14,720 bases of DNA from a virus (Duplodnaviria; Heunggongvirae; Uroviricota; Caudoviricetes), in IMG/VR virus record IMGVR_UViG_2711768072_000014, one strand, 5' to 3'. Both the position numbers and the translations under genes were made by a program. Positions 1 to 14,555 of this stretch are shown one piece after another. Below the pieces are notes generated by a model. The model saw only the letters and a list, made by a program, of their open reading frames with translations, made no database searches and was not told where the DNA came from. The stretch's first letter is position 1. Every line of letters begins with the position of its first letter.

Positions 1-1218
1 ATGAACAAACTGAGCGACACATTGCTAAGGAAACTTCATGGTAAGCCAGCGGAGAAAAACACGTTTTATAGTGATGGCGGAAACCTGAGCGTGAAATATT
101 TAACATCAGGGAAATTGACCTGGTATTTCACATACAGGGCCGGAACGGGAAGGGAGACACGACCCGAACGCATTAAGCTGGGAAGTTATCCTGATCTGAG
201 CCTGAAAGCAGCCAGGGAAAAAGCCGCACAGTGTCGCACATGGCTGGCTGAGGGGAAAAATCCACGTCATGAGATGAATTACACCGTACAGGAAGCGTTA
301 AAGCCCGTAACGGTTGGCGATGCGCTCACCTACTGGCTTGAGTATTACGTAAAGGAAAACCGCGTGGATTATATCGCCCTGAAAAGGCGACTTAATAATC
401 ACGTAATACAGCAGATTGGTGCTATGCCGCTGGATAAATGCGAGCTACGGCACTGGCTGGCCTGTTTTGACCAGGTGGCAAAGCGAACGCCTGTTACTGC
501 CGGATTCGTGCTACAGGCGTGCAAACAGGCGCTTAAGTTCTGCCGTAGGCGGCGCTATGCAATCAGCAACGTTCTGGACGATCTGAACGTGGCGGACGTT
601 GGGAAAAAACCGGATATAAGCGAACGTGTCTTAAGTAACAAAGAACTTGGCGAATTATTGCAGGCACTGGACAAAAAAATATTTTCCCCTTACTACGTCG
701 CGTTAATCCGCCTCCTGATTGTCTTCGGAGCCAGGACGGTAGAACTGAGGCTATCGGAGATCGGGGAGTGGGATTTTACGGAAATGCTATGGACCGTTCC
801 GAAGGAGCACAGCAAAACGAAGGTCGCAATATTCCGGCCCATACCGGAAGCGATCCTGCCGTTCGTCACGCAGCTGGTGGAGCAGAACAGGCACACGGGC
901 TTATTGCTGGGGGAAGCGAAACAGGAGGCCAGCGTATCGCAGTATGGAAGATTAGCGCACAGGAGGCTTAATCATCCTCACTGGTCACTGCATGACATCC
1001 GGCGCACCTTTACAACCATGCTGAACGATTTAGGCGTTGATCCGCATGTCGTGGAGCAGCTTACAGGTCATCAGATGCCAGGAATGCAGCGAGTTTATAA
1101 TCATTCCCGTTATCTGGATGCTAAACGCAATGCGCTGGATATGTGGACGGAGCGGTTAGGGATACTGGCGGGAACACATGAAAACGTAACCACGCTACCA
1201 GTAGCCAGAAGAAAATAA
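1..1218 (+). CDS. int: Tyrosine site-specific integrase, P4-like (N-terminal arm-binding domain plus C-terminal catalytic domain)
   Basis: 405-aa ORF. N-terminus FYSDGGNLSVKY...WYFTYR resembles the arm-type DNA-binding domain of P4-family integrases. C-terminus HDIRRTF...LTGHQ...RVYNHSRY carries the R/H/R/Y catalytic signature of tyrosine recombinases. Confidence 0.9.
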   Translation: MNKLSDTLLRKLHGKPAEKNTFYSDGGNLSVKYLTSGKLTWYFTYRAGTGRETRPERIKLGSYPDLSLKAAREKAAQCRTWLAEGKNPRHEMNYTVQEALKPVTVGDALTYWLEYYVKENRVDYIALKRRLNNHVIQQIGAMPLDKCELRHWLACFDQVAKRTPVTAGFVLQACKQALKFCRRRRYAISNVLDDLNVADVGKKPDISERVLSNKELGELLQALDKKIFSPYYVALIRLLIVFGARTVELRLSEIGEWDFTEMLWTVPKEHSKTKVAIFRPIPEAILPFVTQLVEQNRHTGLLLGEAKQEASVSQYGRLAHRRLNHPHWSLHDIRRTFTTMLNDLGVDPHVVEQLTGHQMPGMQRVYNHSRYLDAKRNALDMWTERLGILAGTHENVTTLPVARRK

Positions 1219-3069: not shown

Positions 3070-3298
3070 AACCACACCGGACGCAGCCGCCGAAGCCATC
3101 AAAACGCTGATGCACGCGCTGATTGATATTTCTGTTATCGCGGACAGGGCACATAAGCACGCCACCAGCGAAACAGAATATGCCGGTGCTTTCGTTCCTC
3201 ACTCACTGGCTGTCATGCAATTTAGTGCTGATACGGCGCTGAATGAGGCCAAAGCTATCCTGATTGCTGATTGTGAAAATGGGGGGGGTTATGCGTGA
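3059..3298 (+). CDS. Hypothetical protein (79 aa)
   Basis: ATG at 3059 overlapping the upstream stop; AGGGGA upstream. Translationally coupled arrangement. Confidence 0.55.
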   Translation: MHNKTTPDAAAEAIKTLMHALIDISVIADRAHKHATSETEYAGAFVPHSLAVMQFSADTALNEAKAILIADCENGGGYA

Positions 3299-3755: not shown

Positions 3756-4055
3756 ATGAAACTTAAATATTCTGGCTTAACTGCCAGTGGCAACACTCAC
3801 CCTAAATTTACGCGCGGTGATATTTACCGCGACCAGTACGGCGGCACGGTAATGATTAAGGGCGTGGCGGGACGGTGCGTAACTTACCGCCGTGAAGGTT
3901 ACGAATATGATTGCGTGATGCCTGTTTATCAGTTCCGGCGTGATTTTTCTCTGGTACAGACCGCGCCGCATAACGTGCCCACCAGCAACGCCAGGGCACG
4001 GGCAAACATCCAGAAGCTGAAAACCATGATTAACGGATTCAGGGGCAAGAAATGA
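3756..4055 (+). CDS. Hypothetical protein (99 aa)
   Basis: ATG at 3756 with GGAGA upstream. Stop overlaps the start of the replication gene (ATGA). Confidence 0.6.
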   Translation: MKLKYSGLTASGNTHPKFTRGDIYRDQYGGTVMIKGVAGRCVTYRREGYEYDCVMPVYQFRRDFSLVQTAPHNVPTSNARARANIQKLKTMINGFRGKK

Positions 4056-5449
4056 AAAGCGCACCGAACTTAAAAAAACAGCCTTACGACAAGATGACCG
4101 AAGTCATCATTTTTGCGGGTAGTGATGCGTGGGCACATGCGAAACAGTGGCAGGAACAGGACGGGCGACTGGCTGGCGATAATGTGCCTCCCATTGTGCT
4201 GGCTGATGATCAACTGGATGAACTGGCAGACCTGAGAATCATCGACGAGGGGCGCTATTGTGTCCGGCTGTACAAGGCAGGCCACATCAGGCCATCAAAT
4301 ATTAATGCCATTGCGCACAAGCTGGCGGCGGCGGGCGTAACTGATGCGAATTATTACCCCGAAGGGATACACAGCCAGAAGCGGGAGAACTGGCGCGAAT
4401 ATCTGGAACGGGAGCGGGGGAAAAAGCCAGGGGAAGAACACCACCAGCGAAAAACCACGCTACCGATGAGCGTTGGATCTGCCGGATACGACACGCAATT
4501 AGATTACGTGGTAAAGGGGATTATTCCGGCATCGTCGCTATGCAGCATATACGGGGCAAGCGGTTCCTATAAATCATTCCTTGCGGGTTCGTGGGCGTGT
4601 CACGTTTCCACGGGCCGCCAGTGGGGAGGCCGCAGGGTGGCGCATGGCGCTGTTCTCTATGTGGTTGGTGAAGGCGGTATCGGCGTTCCGCGTCGTGTAA
4701 AAGCCTGGGAGGTTGTGCACGGTGAGCAGGTGAAAAATCTGTATCTGGTAAACCGTCCAGTTTTTCCGGCTGTCCCGCTTGATGTTGATGAACTGGTTAT
4801 CGCTGCCCGTCAGGTGGAGCGGGAAACGGGTAAACCTGTACGCATGATTATTCTTGATACTCTGGCGCGTTGCTTTGGTGGCAATGATGAAAATGATTCC
4901 CGTGATATGGGGGCGTTTATCCGTGGGTGTGACGAGCTTAAACGGCGCACAGGGGCCACGGTGCTGGTGGTTCACCATTCCGGCAAGGATGAGACGAAAG
5001 GCGCGCGCGGTTCCAGTGCATTTCGTGCTTCGCTGGATGCTGAATACCGGATACGCAGGGAGGACGCAGGAAGCGAAGCGCTGGTTATCTCATGCACCAA
5101 AATGAAGGACGCGGAGGAACTCAAAGAGGCTGCCTATGATTTGCGGGTGGTGGAGCTTTTTACCGACGCTGACGGGGAGTTAATCACGTCGCTGGTGGTG
5201 GTGGATAAGCCGCGCCCTCCCGTTGAACTGGAGCGCATCGAGGAGGCAGGCAACAAGACGGAAAACCATACCGCACTATGGGGGTGCATCCGTTCACGCA
5301 CACAGAACGGCGACAAGTGCACGATCCCGCTGTTACGTGATGACATGAAACGGCTTGGGTATGACGTGAAAAATATGCGGCGATGGTTAGCCAAACTGGA
5401 AAAAGACGCCGTGATTTACATTGATGGTGATGATGTAGGACCACTGTAA
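4052..5449 (+). CDS. Replication protein with RecA-fold ATPase domain (AAA_25 / RepA-DnaB-like helicase type; PICI Pri-Rep-like)
   Basis: 465-aa ORF. Walker A-like YGASGSYKSF, Walker B-like MIILDTL and LVVHHSGKDETKG are arranged as in RecA-fold replicative ATPases of plasmids and satellites. Immediately followed by an iteron cluster. Confidence 0.8.
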   Translation: MKSAPNLKKQPYDKMTEVIIFAGSDAWAHAKQWQEQDGRLAGDNVPPIVLADDQLDELADLRIIDEGRYCVRLYKAGHIRPSNINAIAHKLAAAGVTDANYYPEGIHSQKRENWREYLERERGKKPGEEHHQRKTTLPMSVGSAGYDTQLDYVVKGIIPASSLCSIYGASGSYKSFLAGSWACHVSTGRQWGGRRVAHGAVLYVVGEGGIGVPRRVKAWEVVHGEQVKNLYLVNRPVFPAVPLDVDELVIAARQVERETGKPVRMIILDTLARCFGGNDENDSRDMGAFIRGCDELKRRTGATVLVVHHSGKDETKGARGSSAFRASLDAEYRIRREDAGSEALVISCTKMKDAEELKEAAYDLRVVELFTDADGELITSLVVVDKPRPPVELERIEEAGNKTENHTALWGCIRSRTQNGDKCTIPLLRDDMKRLGYDVKNMRRWLAKLEKDAVIYIDGDDVGPL

Positions 5450-5450
5450 A

Positions 5451-5648
5451 AAGTGAGTAGCAAAAGTGAGTAATGGTGAGGTTTTTACAAAATATTAACA
5501 CGATTGCTCACTTTCTCACCTGTATACATGCTCAAAAGTGAGGAGTAAAAAAATGCTTATGAAACATGCATATATAAAACACGAAAATCTCAAGCGAGAC
5601 GAAGTGAGACGCGTTAAAAAGTGAGGCGTAAAAGTGAGCGCGAGTGAG
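5451..5648. repeat. Putative replication origin: iterons of (A)AGTGAG in direct and inverted orientation flanking AT-rich spacers
   Basis: AAGTGAG at 5451, 5464, 5536, 5602, 5619 and 5632; GGTGAG at 5475; GAGTGAG at 5642; inverted copies CTCACTT and TCTCACC at 5507-5520. AT-rich stretches at 5481-5500 and 5545-5590. Directly downstream of the replication ATPase gene. Confidence 0.6.
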
Positions 5649-5660
5649 GAGATAACCAAA

Positions 5661-5903
5661 ATGCGCAGAGACAGAACAGCGCCAAAATATAAAGCGTTAG
5701 ACATGACAGAGCACGCTTTAAAGGTGGCAATCAGAACGATAGACCGCCACGCGGGGGAAGGATACGCGAAGGAGCATCCCGAACTGATAAGCGCATTCAT
5801 GACAACAGCGGCGGCAAACTTTGCCACGCTGACAGAACGGGAGATTGCCGAAGCGGAACAGGTAACAACCATCAACGTTAAAACCGGAGAGGTGGAATCA
5901 TGA
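5661..5903 (+). CDS. Hypothetical protein (80 aa from ATG 5661; alternative GTG start at 5634)
   Basis: ORF in the track. GAGGA upstream of ATG 5661. The 5' end overlaps the iteron region, so the start is uncertain. Confidence 0.5.
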   Translation: MRRDRTAPKYKALDMTEHALKVAIRTIDRHAGEGYAKEHPELISAFMTTAAANFATLTEREIAEAEQVTTINVKTGEVES

Positions 5904-6214: not shown

Positions 6215-6625
6215 ATGACAGCACAAATTGCAGCTTACGGGCGGCTGGTGGACGACCCGCTGGTAAAACAGAGCAGCAAGGGCACACCGATGACTCTGGC
6301 GCGTATGGCGGTATCGTTGCCATGCAGCCAGGCACATGACGGACAGGCGACGTTATGGTTATCGGTTATCGCATTTGGCAAACAGGCCGATTTCCTGGCT
6401 AAACATCAAAAAGGCGATGTTGCCAGCGTATCCGGCACGATGCAGGTAAGCCAGTGGACCGGACAGAACGGGGAAACGCGGCGGGGGTATCAGGTTATTG
6501 CAGACAGCGTAATCAGTGCCCGCGCGGCACGTCCAGGCGGGAACAGACGCAAAACCACAGGCACACAGGGTAATCAGCCACCAGCGGGAGGCGATGACCC
6601 TTACGGTGACGGTATTCCGTTCTGA
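6215..6625 (+). CDS. ssb: Single-stranded DNA-binding protein (short SSB with acidic C-terminal tail)
   Basis: 136 aa. Core WLSVIAFGKQADFLAKHQKGD...QWTGQNGETRRGYQV parallels the E. coli SSB OB-fold (WHRVVLFGKLAE...KWTDQSGQDRY). The C-terminus DDPYGDGIPF matches the SSB protein-interaction tail (DDDIPF). GAGGTGG Shine-Dalgarno. Confidence 0.8.
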   Translation: MTAQIAAYGRLVDDPLVKQSSKGTPMTLARMAVSLPCSQAHDGQATLWLSVIAFGKQADFLAKHQKGDVASVSGTMQVSQWTGQNGETRRGYQVIADSVISARAARPGGNRRKTTGTQGNQPPAGGDDPYGDGIPF

Positions 6626-10800: not shown

Positions 10801-11240
10801 TGCCGTGGCAACCATTAAGACGATGCACAGAACCAGGCTGTAACAGGCGCGTGAAGTCCGGCAAGTGTGAGGAGCACAGGCGGGCGGCATGGCGTGCAGA
10901 GGATGCCAGACGAGGACACCGCCGCGCGCGTGGGTACTCCAGACAGTGGGACAAATACCGCGCCATGTATCTGAGTAAAAACCCGTTATGCGTGCGATGC
11001 CTTGAGAAGGGGATATATACGCCCGCCGTGGTGGTGGATCACATTATCCCGATTAATGGCGGTGATGATGTTCTCTTCTGGCCCGAATGGAACCATCAGC
11101 CATTGTGCCAGGCGTGCCATAACCAGAAAACGAAATGGCTTGATCCGGCAACAAAAAGCAAGCGTGCCGCAGGTGGATTTCGTGAAGAGGAAGAACGGGC
11201 CGCTAACCGCAATAACTGGATGTATGACGCTGATGAATGA
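10800..11240 (+). CDS. HNH endonuclease (packaging-associated)
   Basis: 146 aa. CxxC...CxxC zinc-binding cysteines and VDHIIPINGG...NHQPLCQACHNQKT match the HNH motif (DH..P....N.Q.LC..CH..K). Located immediately upstream of terS as in HK97-like cos phages. Confidence 0.9.
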   Translation: MPWQPLRRCTEPGCNRRVKSGKCEEHRRAAWRAEDARRGHRRARGYSRQWDKYRAMYLSKNPLCVRCLEKGIYTPAVVVDHIIPINGGDDVLFWPEWNHQPLCQACHNQKTKWLDPATKSKRAAGGFREEEERAANRNNWMYDADE

Positions 11241-11406
11241 GCGGGAACAAAACCGCCTTATCCGTGGACTTATAAGGCAGCGTGACGCATGGAAGACACA
11301 GGAAACAGGGCATAAAGATAAAGCGTCAGGACGCGCAGAACGCATCACAGCGAAGCGATTAACCGACCGTGACTGCGAGGTTATGGAATGTTTCCGCAAT
11401 CGCTGA

Positions 11407-11529
11407 TGAGGCTGTATGACGGGGTGGGGGGCGTTTTCAGGACAAACCCGACCCCGCCGGGCACCGACCGCCTCCTCAAATTTTTATGCACGGGAATTTT
11501 TTGAAAAATAATCTGGCGAAAAAATAAGC
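11407..11529. other. Candidate cos / packaging-recognition region between HNH and terS
   Basis: 123-bp intergenic region with G/C-rich runs (GGGGTGGGGGGCG at 11421-11433; CCCGACCCCGCCGGGCACCGACCGCC at 11447-11472) followed by an AT-rich stretch. This is the position where HK97-like cos phages carry cos. Confidence 0.35.
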
Positions 11530-11886
11530 ATGGCAAGACCACCGAAAGCCCCCGCCTACCTGGATGATATCGCCGTGAAGCAGTGGCGGGAAAAATCGCG
11601 GCAGCTTGCGGAACGGGGAGACCTTACCCCCGCCGACTGGAGTAATCTGGAACTGTATTGTGTCAACTACTCCATTTACCGGAAAGCCGTTGCAGACCTT
11701 GCGGCGCGCGGGTTCAGCATTGTTAACAGTCAGGGCGGCGAGAGCAGAAACCCCGCATTAAGCGCAAAATCCGACGCTGAAAGAGTGATGATAAAAATGG
11801 CCTCTTTGCTCGGTTTTGACCCGATAAGCCGCCGTAAAAATCCACCGGAAACAGAAGAAGAGGACGAGCTTGACCGCCTGGAATAA
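11530..11886 (+). CDS. terS: Terminase small subunit, P27 family
   Basis: 118 aa. Pattern W...LAERGDLTPADWSNLELYCVNYSIYRKA...LGFDPISRRK is typical of P27-family small terminases. Directly precedes and overlaps the large terminase. Confidence 0.85.
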   Translation: MARPPKAPAYLDDIAVKQWREKSRQLAERGDLTPADWSNLELYCVNYSIYRKAVADLAARGFSIVNSQGGESRNPALSAKSDAERVMIKMASLLGFDPISRRKNPPETEEEDELDRLE

Positions 11887-13531
11887 GTACGCAGAAGACG
11901 TAAAAACGGGCAAAATTCCGGCCTGTAAACGGCTGAAACAGGCCGTTAAACGGTACTTTTCGGACCTTGAAAGCCCCCTTTACACGTTCGATCGTGAGGT
12001 TGTGGAGCGGTTTATTGCCTTTTCCAGGGTGTGCCCGCACGTAAAAGGCGCAATGCGCGGTAGCCCCATTGAGCTGGAGCCGTGGCAGCAGTTCGCCTTT
12101 GCGTGCATCCTCGGCTTTAAGGTTAAGGCCACCGGACGGCGCAAATACACGAGCGCCTTTATCGAAGTGCCGCGCAAAAATGCGAAATCCACGACCGCCG
12201 CGATTCTGGCTAACTGGTTTTTGATTATGGAGAACGGTCAGCAGGATATCTACACCGCAGCGGTGAGCCGTGACCAGGCGCGGATCGTCTTTGATGATGC
12301 GCGTCAGATGTGCCTTTTATCCCGACCGTTACGCAGGCGGGTGAATATTCAGGCGCATAAGGTGATACACCCGAAAAGCAACAGCCTGTTAAAGCCGCTG
12401 GCAGCAAAAGCGGCAACCATTGAAGGTACAAACCCGAGTCTTGCCATTGTGGATGAATATCACCTGCACCCTGACAACGGGGTTTATTCCGCGCTTGAAC
12501 TGGGAATGGGGGCGCGTCCGGAGGGGCTGTTATTTGCCATCACCACATCGGGGAGCAACGTTGTTTCAGCCTGTAAACAACACTACGACTATTGCTGCCA
12601 GATACTGGATGGTGAAGAGGTGAACGAATCCATGTTCGTGCTGATTTACGAGCTGGATGATGAAAGCGAGGTTGACGATCCGGCGATGTGGATAAAGGCG
12701 AATCCCAATATCGATGTTTCCGTCGATCGTGAAAAACTGGCCTCAACCATCCAGAAAGCGCGGGGAATACCGTCGCAGTGGGTGGAGATGATGACAAAGC
12801 GATTTAATATCTGGTGCCAGGGGGCTACCCCGTGGATGGGTAACGGCGCATGGGCTGAGTGTGCCGGAACGTTCACGGAGGAAGATTTACACGGCCAGGA
12901 GTGTTACGCGGGGCTGGATTTATCATCAACCAGCGATATTTCCAGCGTATGCTATGCCTTTCCGGTCGGTAAAACCATTATGCTGATTTCCCGTCATTAT
13001 CTGCCGGAGTTCCAGCTACAGAACCCCGCCAATAAAAACCGCGCTGTCTATCGTCAGTGGGCTAAAGCGGGCTGGATACGCACAACGCCTGGCGACTGCA
13101 TTGATTACGACCGGATCAGAGATGACATCATGCAGGACGCGGAGAAATTTCATATCAGGCTGGTGGGCTTTGATACGTGGAACGCCACGCATCTCAGAAC
13201 GCAATTACAGGGGGCAGGTTTTGAGGTGGAGCCGTTCCCGCAAACCTACCTCAGATTCAGTCCGGCGGCGAAATCGTTCGAAGTTTTTGTTAACCGCAGG
13301 GTGATTGTGCATCGTGGCGATCCGGTGTTGTCCTGGTCGATGAGTAACGTCGTGATGCAGAGTGACGCGAACGCCAATATCAAGCCGAACAAGAAAAAAT
13401 CACCGAACAAGATAGACCCGAGCGTAGCGGCGCTGATGGCGTTTGGTACATTCCAGGCAGAGCATGAGGATTTTGCTTTTGATATAAGCGACAGCCACCG
13501 CCAGAAACTGGAAGAATTTAGCGGGGTGTAA
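11870..13531 (+). CDS. terL: Terminase large subunit (ATPase plus nuclease domains)
   Basis: 553 aa. Walker A-like VPRKNAKSTTAA in the N-terminal ATPase region, acidic motifs (IVDEYH) and a C-terminal nuclease-like region. TTG start at 11870 preceded by GAGGA, overlapping terS. Confidence 0.9.
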   Translation: MTAWNKYAEDVKTGKIPACKRLKQAVKRYFSDLESPLYTFDREVVERFIAFSRVCPHVKGAMRGSPIELEPWQQFAFACILGFKVKATGRRKYTSAFIEVPRKNAKSTTAAILANWFLIMENGQQDIYTAAVSRDQARIVFDDARQMCLLSRPLRRRVNIQAHKVIHPKSNSLLKPLAAKAATIEGTNPSLAIVDEYHLHPDNGVYSALELGMGARPEGLLFAITTSGSNVVSACKQHYDYCCQILDGEEVNESMFVLIYELDDESEVDDPAMWIKANPNIDVSVDREKLASTIQKARGIPSQWVEMMTKRFNIWCQGATPWMGNGAWAECAGTFTEEDLHGQECYAGLDLSSTSDISSVCYAFPVGKTIMLISRHYLPEFQLQNPANKNRAVYRQWAKAGWIRTTPGDCIDYDRIRDDIMQDAEKFHIRLVGFDTWNATHLRTQLQGAGFEVEPFPQTYLRFSPAAKSFEVFVNRRVIVHRGDPVLSWSMSNVVMQSDANANIKPNKKKSPNKIDPSVAALMAFGTFQAEHEDFAFDISDSHRQKLEEFSGV

Positions 13532-13544
13532 TGAGGTCAGCAGC

Positions 13545-13826
13545 ATGACAGAAGCCGAAATACTGCGATTAATCCGCCGCGTCTCTGGAATCAGCCAGCA
13601 GCATGACGAACAGGCCACGCAGCCGGACAGCGTGACCGCCGAAAATTATGCGCGTGTTGTTGCTGAGGTGATGCGCCGTGATGGTATCCAGCTTAATGAT
13701 GTGGATATGCGCAACATACGGATCCGCGTTCTTGAAATGCTGGCCTACCGTCGCCGCGTGCAGACGTACAGGGAAAAAGCAAAAATTACGTACCACTGGA
13801 AGAAGCCGGAGCGGTTACGGCGGTAA
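13545..13826 (+). CDS. Hypothetical protein (93 aa), last gene before the noncoding right end
   Basis: ORF in the track. GAGG 9 nt upstream of ATG. No recognisable motif. Confidence 0.5.
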   Translation: MTEAEILRLIRRVSGISQQHDEQATQPDSVTAENYARVVAEVMRRDGIQLNDVDMRNIRIRVLEMLAYRRRVQTYREKAKITYHWKKPERLRR

Positions 13827-13831
13827 CTGGT

Positions 13832-13859
13832 TGAACTTAAAGCAAAGCGCAAAATTGCG
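13832..13859. repeat. 28-bp perfect direct repeat, copy 1 (TGAACTTAAAGCAAAGCGCAAAATTGCG)
   Basis: Identical to 14051-14078; start-to-start distance 219 bp. Contains the internal inverted repeat GCGCAA..TTGCG. Confidence 0.9.
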
Positions 13860-13872
13860 TTGGCTGGTGGGT

Positions 13873-13892
13873 GAGTTGCAGATCTGCAACTC
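13873..13892. repeat. 20-bp perfect palindrome GAGTTGCAGATCTGCAACTC
   Basis: Sequence is its own reverse complement. Shares the TGCA-N4-TGCA core with the palindrome at 14101-14124. Confidence 0.9.
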
Positions 13893-14050
13893 GACCATGA
13901 AATTACGGAAAATACCCGTAGTTTGGGTAGTAAGAGTAACACCCAGATTTTGGGGCTTACTCGCGATACCCAAATAAAGGGTATCGGTGGAAGAAATATC
14001 GTTTCTCATATGTGAGTACCGAGGGCGGAATTCCGCCTTCGGTTACTCGC

Positions 14051-14078
14051 TGAACTTAAAGCAAAGCGCAAAATTGCG
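14051..14078. repeat. 28-bp perfect direct repeat, copy 2
   Basis: Identical to 13832-13859. Confidence 0.9.
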
Positions 14079-14100
14079 CTGATTACTGGTTGGAATTGTT

Positions 14101-14124
14101 CCAGAGTGCAAATTTGCACTCTGG
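14101..14124. repeat. 24-bp perfect palindrome CCAGAGTGCAAATTTGCACTCTGG
   Basis: Sequence is its own reverse complement. TGCA-N4-TGCA core as in 13873-13892. Confidence 0.9.
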
Positions 14125-14555
14125 CCTAACCCGTTGATATTTCCGGCAACCTCAATTTGAGGAGATCGGAAACATCACCCTTCAAATTCTGAATGGTCAT
14201 AATGACCACGCAGACCATCAAGGCAACCACAACGAACATCGTTACGGTTGGAGCTTTTACCCCACTGGGGAAAAGGTACGCACCTGAATCATCATTACCG
14301 TGATCAAGGGTATGTAAAGCCCACCAGCCTGATTAACGTTTAACCGGAAAAAAATTCCGGTAGGTGGGGATCCCCATATCGACATTAACGCCCCTCATGA
14401 ATTGGTGCGCTTCCCCCTGGAAAGATGACCCGCCTTTATATTTCTTGTGTCTATTTGTTCCACGTTGTTTCATACAGTGCACCGAACGGTGTAGTCACTG
14501 GTGTAGTCATTTTGCGATTTTTGGCACTTTTTGTGGTGCAAATTATTTAATTAAA

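Follow-up and report, generated by a model that had tools for sequence, protein, structure and literature searches.

A gap of 202 nt (5450-5651) lies between the stop codon of a replication gene, rep, and the next gene in the window, which is the whole 14,720-nt (14.7-kb) stretch of viral DNA analyzed here, and the gap is filled by short repeated hexamers. The question raised by this locus is whether these repeats are the site at which replication of the element begins, or whether they serve another function. A reading made from the letters of the sequence alone had proposed an iteron-type origin for the upstream protein. Our results agree with this proposal and indicate that 5450-5651 is very probably the vegetative replication origin of an Escherichia coli capsid-forming PICI (cf-PICI), working with the upstream Rep. 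The evidence is comparative, and consists of a layout conserved among relatives, co-variation of the repeats with residue 441 of Rep, and the exchange of replication gene and repeats as a cassette.

The element and its repeat cluster

The genes matched by Pfam in the window are all on the + strand. They code, in order, for a tyrosine integrase, a DUF4222 protein, the AAA_25 protein Rep, a single-stranded DNA-binding protein (SSB), and PerC, followed by an HK97-type capsid protein, a prohead protease, a portal protein, a head completion protein, a connector, an HNH endonuclease, TerS, and TerL (Table 1). No tail or lysis families were matched by Pfam in the 20 ORFs scanned. This content includes the genes by which cf-PICIs have been defined (10.1101/2025.02.11.637232), and judged by its genes the window is an E. 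coli cf-PICI. The segment 4052-6700 is 98.8% identical to part of an island of about 15 kb located in tqsA of E. coli strain 10, which has the same gene order, and related copies were found in 1668 of 5426 complete E. coli genomes, O157:H7 among them. The SSB encoded by the element probably belongs to the replication module.

The repeats form one dense cluster. Ten RGTGAG hexamers, eight direct and two inverted, are present inside 5450-5651, together with one degenerate AGCGAG at 5593-5598. The direct copies start at 5452, 5465, 5475 (GGTGAG), 5537, 5603, 5620, 5633, and 5643, and the inverted copies occupy 5507-5512 and 5515-5520 (GGTGAG); the repeat unit kept between copies is 7-10 nt. In the whole window AGTGAG occurs 12 times and RGTGAG 28 times, and 8 and 10 of these, respectively, fall within 5452-5648. 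In 2000 sequences simulated from the window by a second-order Markov model, 200 nt contained at most 4, against the 10 seen here. When only the base composition of 5440-5660 was simulated, RGTGAG hexamers averaged 0.25 and never exceeded 4. The cluster is thus genuine, and much denser than chance would produce. The 14.7-kb window has no second RGTGAG cluster; 18 copies lie outside 5450-5650, and these are isolated except for an overlapping AGTGAG pair at 3198-3207, which lies inside a coding region and was not taken as part of a second cluster. In addition, a repeat search returned a 46-nt direct repeat between the left and right arrays (5447-5492 and 5615-5660, 72% identical), a 17-mer, AAAAGTGAGGAGTAAAA, present in three copies, and a 20-nt palindrome.

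The sequence-only reading had described at least eight direct and two inverted copies within 200 bp, interleaved with AT-rich stretches and lying immediately downstream of the replication gene. Its coordinates, counts, and description proved right. With the TAA stop of rep at 5447-5449, the first iteron follows without a gap, at 5450; GC content is as low as 0.35 over 5400-5599. Duplex stability within the region is lowest in the 30-mers 5469-5498 (dG -32.6) and 5550-5579 (dG -32.4), both weaker by about 2.7 sd than the average 30-mer of the window (-41.7, sd 3.4). The AT-rich tracts are only moderately unstable; in seven further 30-mers of the window the stability is lower still.

The arrangement of the parts agrees with the plan of PICI origins, with iterons at 5450-5542 and 5593-5648 on either side of the AT-rich 5543-5592. 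Iterons of opposite orientation are present (5507 and 5515 vs 5537), and all inverted copies lie to the left of the main AT-rich tract. The palindromic core of the central dyad, which is also the centre of the 20-nt palindrome, is TGTATACA (5521-5528). The right array is direct throughout, and its iterons are spaced 10-17 nt apart.

Table 1. Coordinates of the putative origin, its parts, and neighbouring genes in the window.
Feature	Position	Strand	Content or evidence
Tyrosine integrase gene	1..1218	+	Pfam
DUF4222 gene	3756..4055	+	Pfam
rep, 465-aa RepA-family (AAA_25, RecA-fold) helicase	4052..5449	+	Pfam AAA_25 E 4.7e-44, residues 146-314
Rep N-terminal domain, residues ~1-122	4052..4419	+	Common to elements with other rep core types
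Rep C-terminal winged-helix domain, residues 395-465, predicted iteron reader	5234..5446	+	AF2 and Foldseek
Asn441 codon, candidate specificity determinant	5372..5374	+	Caps N-terminus of predicted recognition helix 442-451
Left array, three direct iterons	5450..5480	+	AAAGTGAG 5450-5457, AAAGTGAG 5463-5470, TGGTGAG 5474-5480
First AT-rich stretch, ~80% A+T	5481..5499	.	Stability of 30-mer 5469-5498
Central dyad	5507..5542	.	Inverted iterons 5507-5512 and 5515-5520; direct iteron 5537-5542
Main AT-rich tract, candidate DNA-unwinding element	5543..5592	.	30-mer 5550-5579 least stable of region
Right array	5593..5648	+	AGCGAG 5593-5598 and four direct AGTGAG at 5603, 5620, 5633, 5643
First gene past the putative origin, 80 aa	5661..5903	+	PHROG 1231, E 3e-51
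SSB, element-encoded	6215..6625	+	Pfam SSB E 9e-16; PHROG 44

Several other signals were sought in and around the repeats. Allowing up to one mismatch, no DnaA box was found among the iterons, the sole match in the region being TTTTACAAA at 5483, and matches in the window are at chance level. Similarly, the IHF consensus is absent within 5450-5650 and is not enriched. Neither a sigma-70 promoter consensus nor an intrinsic terminator consensus was found in 5300-5800, and because of this the origin is probably transcribed within the rightward operon.

The gene following the repeats most likely starts at ATG 5661. Its homologues begin with MTQKRRDRT or MRRDRT, at an ATG equivalent to 5652-5661, and PGAP annotates an 83-aa version of it in two of the related loci. 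It had been claimed that the start of this gene overlaps the repeats. This holds for its Shine-Dalgarno sequence, GAGGAG at 5646-5651, which overlaps the last iteron, but not for its coding start, which the homologues place at ATG 5661. An alternative GTG start at 5634, inside the repeats, is present in the ORF list. A coupling of origin activity to expression of the downstream gene, as also suggested in that reading, is speculation.

Rep, its relatives and the specificity of the iterons

Rep is named 'helicase RepA family protein' in the RefSeq record of the 98.8%-identical copy. PHROG 2850 covers the protein over its full length, and helicase/primase PHROGs match its core. The only sequence match of Rep in the PDB is the RSF1010 RepA helicase (1g8y, E 0.007, residues 147-319). 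Since its Walker A motif, GASGSYKS, is unusual, the helicase activity of Rep is assumed here from family membership. The N-terminal domain is alpha/beta in the AF2 model (pLDDT 60-91) and has a partial match to PHROG 864, 'DNA primase'. AF2 modelled the full-length protein poorly (pLDDT 64, with the helicase core partly below 50), although the last 65 residues are confident. A fold search with this poor model returned generic RecA-fold proteins (RadA, Rad51, T7 gp4) and unrelated matches, and was set aside. For this reason, a model of the C-terminal domain was used instead. It has a mean pLDDT of 87.9 over residues 390-465 and the order of three helices followed by a beta hairpin (H-H-H-strand-strand). 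Its top PDB matches in Foldseek are winged-helix DNA binders only, including HrcA, MepR/MarR, ArsR, Fur, LexA, DtxR, the winged helix of ORC/Cdc6, DnaD, and the winged helix of MCM, with TM scores of 0.6-0.8, probabilities up to 0.98, and E-values that are weak (about 0.1), as expected for a small domain. On these models, we are confident in predicting that the C-terminal domain of Rep is a winged helix. Rep is proposed to be both initiator and helicase.

Relatives of Rep were collected by scanning one genome per species, which gave 80 loci with 52-72% identity over residues ~130-465. They were found in Xenorhabdus, Citrobacter, Kluyvera, Pantoea, Kosakonia, Pectobacterium, Serratia, Morganella, Erwinia, and other genera, and a repeat array is present in the 300 nt after the Rep stop in nearly all of the 80. 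The layout is also conserved in loci of Escherichia and Salmonella, and the rep-then-iteron plan recurs throughout Enterobacterales, in about 85 homologous loci. The common plan runs from direct iterons to an inverted iteron, a TATA(C/T)A core, a direct iteron, an AT-rich tract, and again direct iterons. The first one to three direct iterons begin 3-15 nt past the stop in almost all relatives, and the AT-rich tract, about 40-50 nt long, has the same relative position in most of them and is followed by two to five direct iterons.

The central unit of this plan consists of CACTT, 7-9 nt, TATA(C/T)A, 5-8 nt, and AAGTG, with a total length of 28-32 nt. A regular expression found it in 70 of 85 distinct origins, whatever their iteron class, and recognisable variants occur in most of the others. 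It lies 47-73 nt (mostly 58-63 nt) past the rep stop, with one locus at 38 nt. As judged by this comparison, the architecture is conserved across genera, and the inverted copies in the window are not incidental: 5507-5512 and the direct iteron at 5537 form the family-wide central dyad.

The iterons themselves differ between loci in a regular manner. The 5' half (AAGTG) is near-constant and the 3' half varies, with all copies within a locus switching together to GTGAG(GA), GTGGGG(A), GTGGGGG(A/C), or (G/A)TGCGGCA. In an alignment of 64 Reps with their loci, the iteron class followed residue 441 throughout: Asn with GTGAG (21/21 loci), His with GTGGG (8/8), Lys, within SKKF, with GTGGGGG (28/28), and Ser, within an inserted RKSF, with (G/A)TGCGG or (G/A)TGCCG (7/7). 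A GRKGF allele likewise has (G/A)TGCG iterons, as in the RKSF class, and a K. pneumoniae element with KVRKSF carries GTGCGGCA. In the AF2 model, residue 441 directly precedes helix 442-451, the third of the domain and, in winged helices, usually the recognition helix. The pairings of Asn with adenine and of His or Lys with guanine are the usual side-chain/base preferences, and they fit the rule for residue 441.

By mutual information over the whole Rep alignment residue 441 ranks second, but other top columns (315, 246, and 157 among them) follow clades, so that the score alone is confounded by phylogeny. Near-isogenic pairs and a prediction test were therefore relied on. Over the last 40 residues, which were compared, the Rep allele P0050 departs from the L003 Rep only by H441N, and it has GTGAG iterons in place of GTGGGG. 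The alleles P0031 and P0007 differ over the same stretch only by M439V and N441H, with the same iteron switch. For the prediction test, the iteron class was predicted before the DNA was inspected, and the contigs of eleven further Rep alleles were then examined. Ten of ten predictions were correct (5/5 for N441 and 5/5 for H441), near-isogenic N/H pairs among them. The counts of GTGAG and GTGGG were 8:0, 8:0, 9:0, 9:0, and 5:2 for the five N441 alleles, and 1:8, 0:11, 0:8, 0:11, and 0:11 for the five H441 alleles. On this comparative evidence the iteron sequence appears to be specific to the cognate Rep, and Asn441 is a candidate reader of the A in GTGAG. A second association, of position 451 (Q/H vs N) with AAGTG vs AAATG in Xenorhabdus, comes from three loci of one clade and is not claimed.

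The exchange of replication genes among sister cf-PICIs points in the same direction. Three sister elements have the same upstream DUF4222 gene and the same downstream small gene and SSB gene, with a different replication gene between them, which is P4-alpha-like in L004 and L005 and codes for a DUF927 protein in L006. Homology of the window to these elements (blastn, ~77% identity) ends at 4418-4419, that is, at Rep residue ~122, and resumes at ~5700, about 40 nt into the downstream gene. The gap contains another array in each case, GGTGAACAG/CTGTTCACC after the P4-alpha-like rep and TAACCCGCA/GCGGGTTA after the DUF927 rep, both unrelated to the AGTGAG iterons. In the P4 record, GGTGAACA is annotated as 'ori type 1 repeat' in crr, the cis-required replication region directly after alpha. 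In addition, the iterons still follow a RepA-type rep where the downstream gene differs, for example in three loci in which it is ProQ-like. From these comparisons, the Rep core with its winged helix and the array of repeats behave as one cassette, which is inherited and exchanged as a unit. A relative from K. pneumoniae with the same origin layout is a 16,971-bp circle in its assembly and was deposited as a plasmid, which agrees with an extrachromosomal form.

Proposed initiation and other possible functions of the repeats

In the model outlined here, we only infer the binding of Rep to the iterons, the melting of the duplex, the self-loading of the helicase, and the direction of replication. 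Rep, a RepA/DnaB-like RecA-fold helicase with a C-terminal winged helix, would be made from the rightward operon once the element is induced. Its winged-helix domains would read the (A)AGTGAG iterons, with the iteron DNA AAAGTGAGG as their target, and Asn441 would specify the A of GTGAG. Rep bound to the central inverted pair would be oppositely oriented across TGTATACA, and the flanking direct arrays may recruit further Rep protomers. The duplex would then open at the TATA core and/or in the AT-rich tract, where the Rep helicase might load itself without DnaA or a separate loader. The SSB of the element would coat the single strands, and host primase and polymerase would complete the synthesis. 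The absence of DnaA boxes and IHF sites among the iterons is circumstantial support for such a mechanism.

The repeats might instead be operators, through which Rep or another winged-helix regulator would control rep or the downstream operon, with no part in replication. We consider this improbable. Winged-helix domains are typical of transcription factors, but the one predicted here is fused to a helicase, and the published precedent in PICIs is an origin. The region is apparently transcribed, with no terminator between rep and the next gene, yet a sigma-70 promoter consensus is also missing, as described above. Although the ribosome-binding site of the downstream gene shares bases with the last iteron, the layout persists when that gene is replaced. 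Co-variation with residue 441 could in principle reflect Rep acting as a DNA-binding regulator only, and plasmid initiators often autoregulate via inverted iterons, but eleven sites over 200 nt, combined with an AT-rich tract and a TATA-centred dyad, are the layout of an origin rather than of an operator. Autoregulation by Rep could coexist with origin function.

Another explanation is that the array is a replication enhancer similar to crr of P4, or a copy-control ('handcuffing') site, and that synthesis starts elsewhere in the island. In P4, crr is the array beside alpha, and 4.5 kb separate it from the annotated ori. Since that array is not the start, an array adjacent to rep is not automatically the start of synthesis, and the sister cf-PICIs with a P4-alpha-like rep do carry P4-type iterons. 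This explanation has little probability for the window, however, in which the RGTGAG cluster has no second counterpart and the array itself holds the AT-rich tracts and the dyad expected of a melting site. That the repeats are a packaging signal (cos/pac) read by TerS, arise from chance or low complexity, or belong to a small coding ORF is highly improbable. In favour of such readings, cf-PICIs package their own DNA by their own TerS, TerL, and HNH (10.1101/2022.09.08.507074), and 5554-5625 contains an ORF of 23 codons whose ribosome-binding site is good. Against them, the repeats co-vary with Rep rather than with packaging genes and are present after rep despite other downstream content, the simulations exclude chance, the ORF is not conserved (absent or in another frame in five related loci), and Rfam gave nothing credible in 5300-5800.

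Comparison with known replication systems

The interpretation of 5450-5651 as an origin is in line with earlier work on PICIs, and the claim that the locus matches their rep-then-ori layout is borne out by the cf-PICI gene content and by this published precedent. PICI origins are described as lying directly 3' of rep, with an AT-rich region between two sets of iterons (PMC6092414), and the rep-ori of EcCICFT073 drives the replication of a plasmid (Fillol-Salom et al., 2018, PMC6092414). The window has the position, the two-set iterons, and the host genus in common with the Gram-negative PICI origins described there (EcCICFT073 and other E. coli PICIs), as well as the order of int, rep, ori, and then late genes, all rightward. 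The replicon tested in EcCICFT073 uses pri-rep, whereas the initiator in the window is a RepA-family (AAA_25) helicase and the element is a cf-PICI. Neither of two cf-PICI papers (10.1101/2022.09.08.507074, 10.1101/2025.02.11.637232) mentions an origin or iterons.

The rep-then-ori layout is already known for PICIs, and an iteron origin after rep is what specialists would expect, so the general picture of PICI replication is unchanged. What the comparisons made here add is the conserved central dyad and the apparent rule linking residue 441 to a base. Our results would also locate the replication origin of a satellite family that is widespread in E. coli, Salmonella, and Klebsiella, the cf-PICIs, where it is undescribed in the literature searched. 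The residue-to-base rule, which extends over about 75 natural alleles, would be a ready specificity code. With it, satellites that use one another's replication proteins could be told from those that avoid them, and orthogonal rep-ori pairs could be designed on its basis.

The SaPI origins offer a similar case. The SaPIbov1, SaPI1, and SaPI5 origins resemble the window in that penta- or hexanucleotide iterons, 6-12 in number, directly follow rep, that the centre is AT-rich, and that iterons of both orientations occur, those inverted in the window all lying to the left of its main AT-rich tract. In Qiao et al. (2022, PMC9371898), SaPI Reps are described as AAA+ helicases with kinship to the SF3/MCM groups, and they read the iterons via a C-terminal winged-helix domain. 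As proposed for the Rep of the window, the initiator is also the helicase and the iteron sequence defines specificity. However, SaPI Rep is an AAA+ protein, in contrast to the RecA-fold, RepA/DnaB-like AAA_25 core of the window Rep, and no sequence homology was found between the two. The resemblance is one of design, not of descent.

P4 is, like the window element, an enterobacterial phage satellite with an iteron array (crr) directly after its replication gene. The first ~122 residues of the window Rep are common to the P4-alpha-like proteins of the sister elements, and it is these sisters (L004 and L005), not the window, that combine a P4-alpha-like rep with P4-type GGTGAACA iterons. The helicase core and the winged helix of the window Rep are unrelated to alpha. 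P4 has type 1 iterons, TGTTCACC, at two separate cis sites, whereas the window has AGTGAG iterons in a single cluster. With its AAA_25 core, AGTGAG iterons, and single cluster, the window does not belong to the P4 alpha/ori-crr system.

Among plasmids, RSF1010 (IncQ) has a RepA of the same hexameric-helicase fold as the core of the window Rep, with distant similarity. RSF1010 divides the work among several proteins, in that RepC binds iterons of about 20 bp, RepA unwinds the DNA, and RepB' primes synthesis. In the window, by contrast, the predicted iteron reader is fused to the helicase and the iterons are 7-10 bp long. No match to the RepC or RepB families was found in the window, which is not an IncQ replicon. 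The classical iteron plasmids (pSC101, R6K, RK2, and F) have in common with the window an initiator site made of repeats beside an AT-rich region, and a specificity that lies in the iteron set. Classical iterons are 17-22 bp long, and their two-winged-helix initiators have no helicase activity and need DnaA boxes and the host DnaB/DnaC. The window has a unit of 7-10 nt and no DnaA box among its iterons. Nor is it a Rep_3-type replicon, as no Rep_3 match was obtained in the 20 ORFs scanned and the only Pfam family of Rep is AAA_25. A preprint on the plasmid pIGMS31 has no bearing on the window origin.

A parallel in design is found in eukaryotic viruses. In SV40 large T antigen and papillomavirus E1, one protein recognises the origin and becomes the helicase, probably as two opposed rings, and inverted short repeats form a dyad beside an AT tract. 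The helicase superfamily and the DNA-binding fold of these SF3 initiator-helicases differ from those of the window Rep, and there is no homology. We lean, with some reserve, towards the joint view that Rep is a RecA-fold self-loading initiator-helicase and that its specificity is switched at a single residue. If this is true, N441 would serve for A, H or K for G, and an RK(S/G) insertion for CGG, and the resulting rep-ori cassettes, which would not cross-react with one another, would let several satellites replicate in one cell. The window Rep would then represent an independent invention of the design seen in the AAA+ Reps of SaPIs and the SF3 helicases of eukaryotic viruses.

TATA core of the central dyad and GGTGAG elsewhere in the element

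A TATA(C/T)A core is located in the central dyad of the putative origin (Table). Among the related origins of loci L002-L098, this core was found with an inverted iteron on one side and a direct one on the other in 70 of 85, its distance from the rep stop codon was almost constant, and it was kept in every iteron class and genus compared. Melting may begin at this core, or the core may be bound by a host factor or act as a signal for priming.

Iteron-like hexamers were also counted in the rest of the window. GGTGAG occurred 14 times outside 5450-5650 alone, against 5.6 copies (sd 2.3) expected for the whole window; these copies were dispersed on both strands in coding regions. AGTGAG showed no comparable excess. 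The GGTGAG excess could be a codon-pair effect.

Table. Positions of the features of Rep, the putative origin, and the Icd-like ORF
Feature	Window position	Rep or ORF residues	Description
341-aa ORF	1839-2864	293-336	Residues given match an Icd-like cell-division-inhibitor domain
Rep N-terminal domain	4052-4419	1-122	
Rep P-loop	4550-4576	167-175	YGASGSYKS
Central dyad with TATA(C/T)A core	5507-5542		Core flanked by an inverted and a direct iteron; TGTATACA in the window

Domains of Rep and its relatives

The P-loop of Rep was unchanged in 37 relatives, and it differs from the Walker A consensus GxxxxGK(S/T) in that Tyr replaces the second Gly. Among the H441 Reps, those with MKHFR in the recognition helix (loci L091 and L097) were associated with GTGGGGA iterons, whereas those with TKHLK (L092 and L096) were associated with looser iterons, in which GTGGG is followed by C, T, or A. 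This difference suggests that residues 442-443 form a second iteron-specificity position.

An alpha/beta fold was confidently predicted for the N-terminal domain, which partially matched the PHROG "DNA primase"; no Pfam family was found for these residues. The domain shares approximately 77% DNA identity with elements that otherwise carry a P4-alpha-like or DUF927-type replication protein. Because it is shared with otherwise different replication proteins, the recombination breakpoint must fall within the rep gene.

According to ORF coordinates, many Rep relatives in L008-L026 (Xenorhabdus) and L048-L057 (Serratia and Pectobacterium) are approximately 690-730 aa long. These long relatives have an N-terminal extension, possibly a primase domain, that the 465-aa E. 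coli Rep does not have. In several Xenorhabdus genomes, two copies were present on separate contigs.

Icd-like ORF and a circular Klebsiella element

The 341-aa ORF had no match in Pfam or PADLOC, and its Icd-like match corresponds to the last 44 residues (293-336). Because the Icd-like protein is encoded by a separate gene of approximately 65 aa in relatives, the ORF could represent either a fused gene or a reading frame that was called too long.

A complete cf-PICI-like element, with integrase, Rep, capsid, adaptor, and terminases, makes up L099 (CP018459.1), the K. pneumoniae record pKp_Goe_795-4, which was deposited as a plasmid and assembled as a circle of 16,971 bp. It also contains a 1135-aa ORF (10983-14390 of that record) annotated as a tail tape measure protein, which was unexpected, since cf-PICI-type elements are described as having no tail genes.
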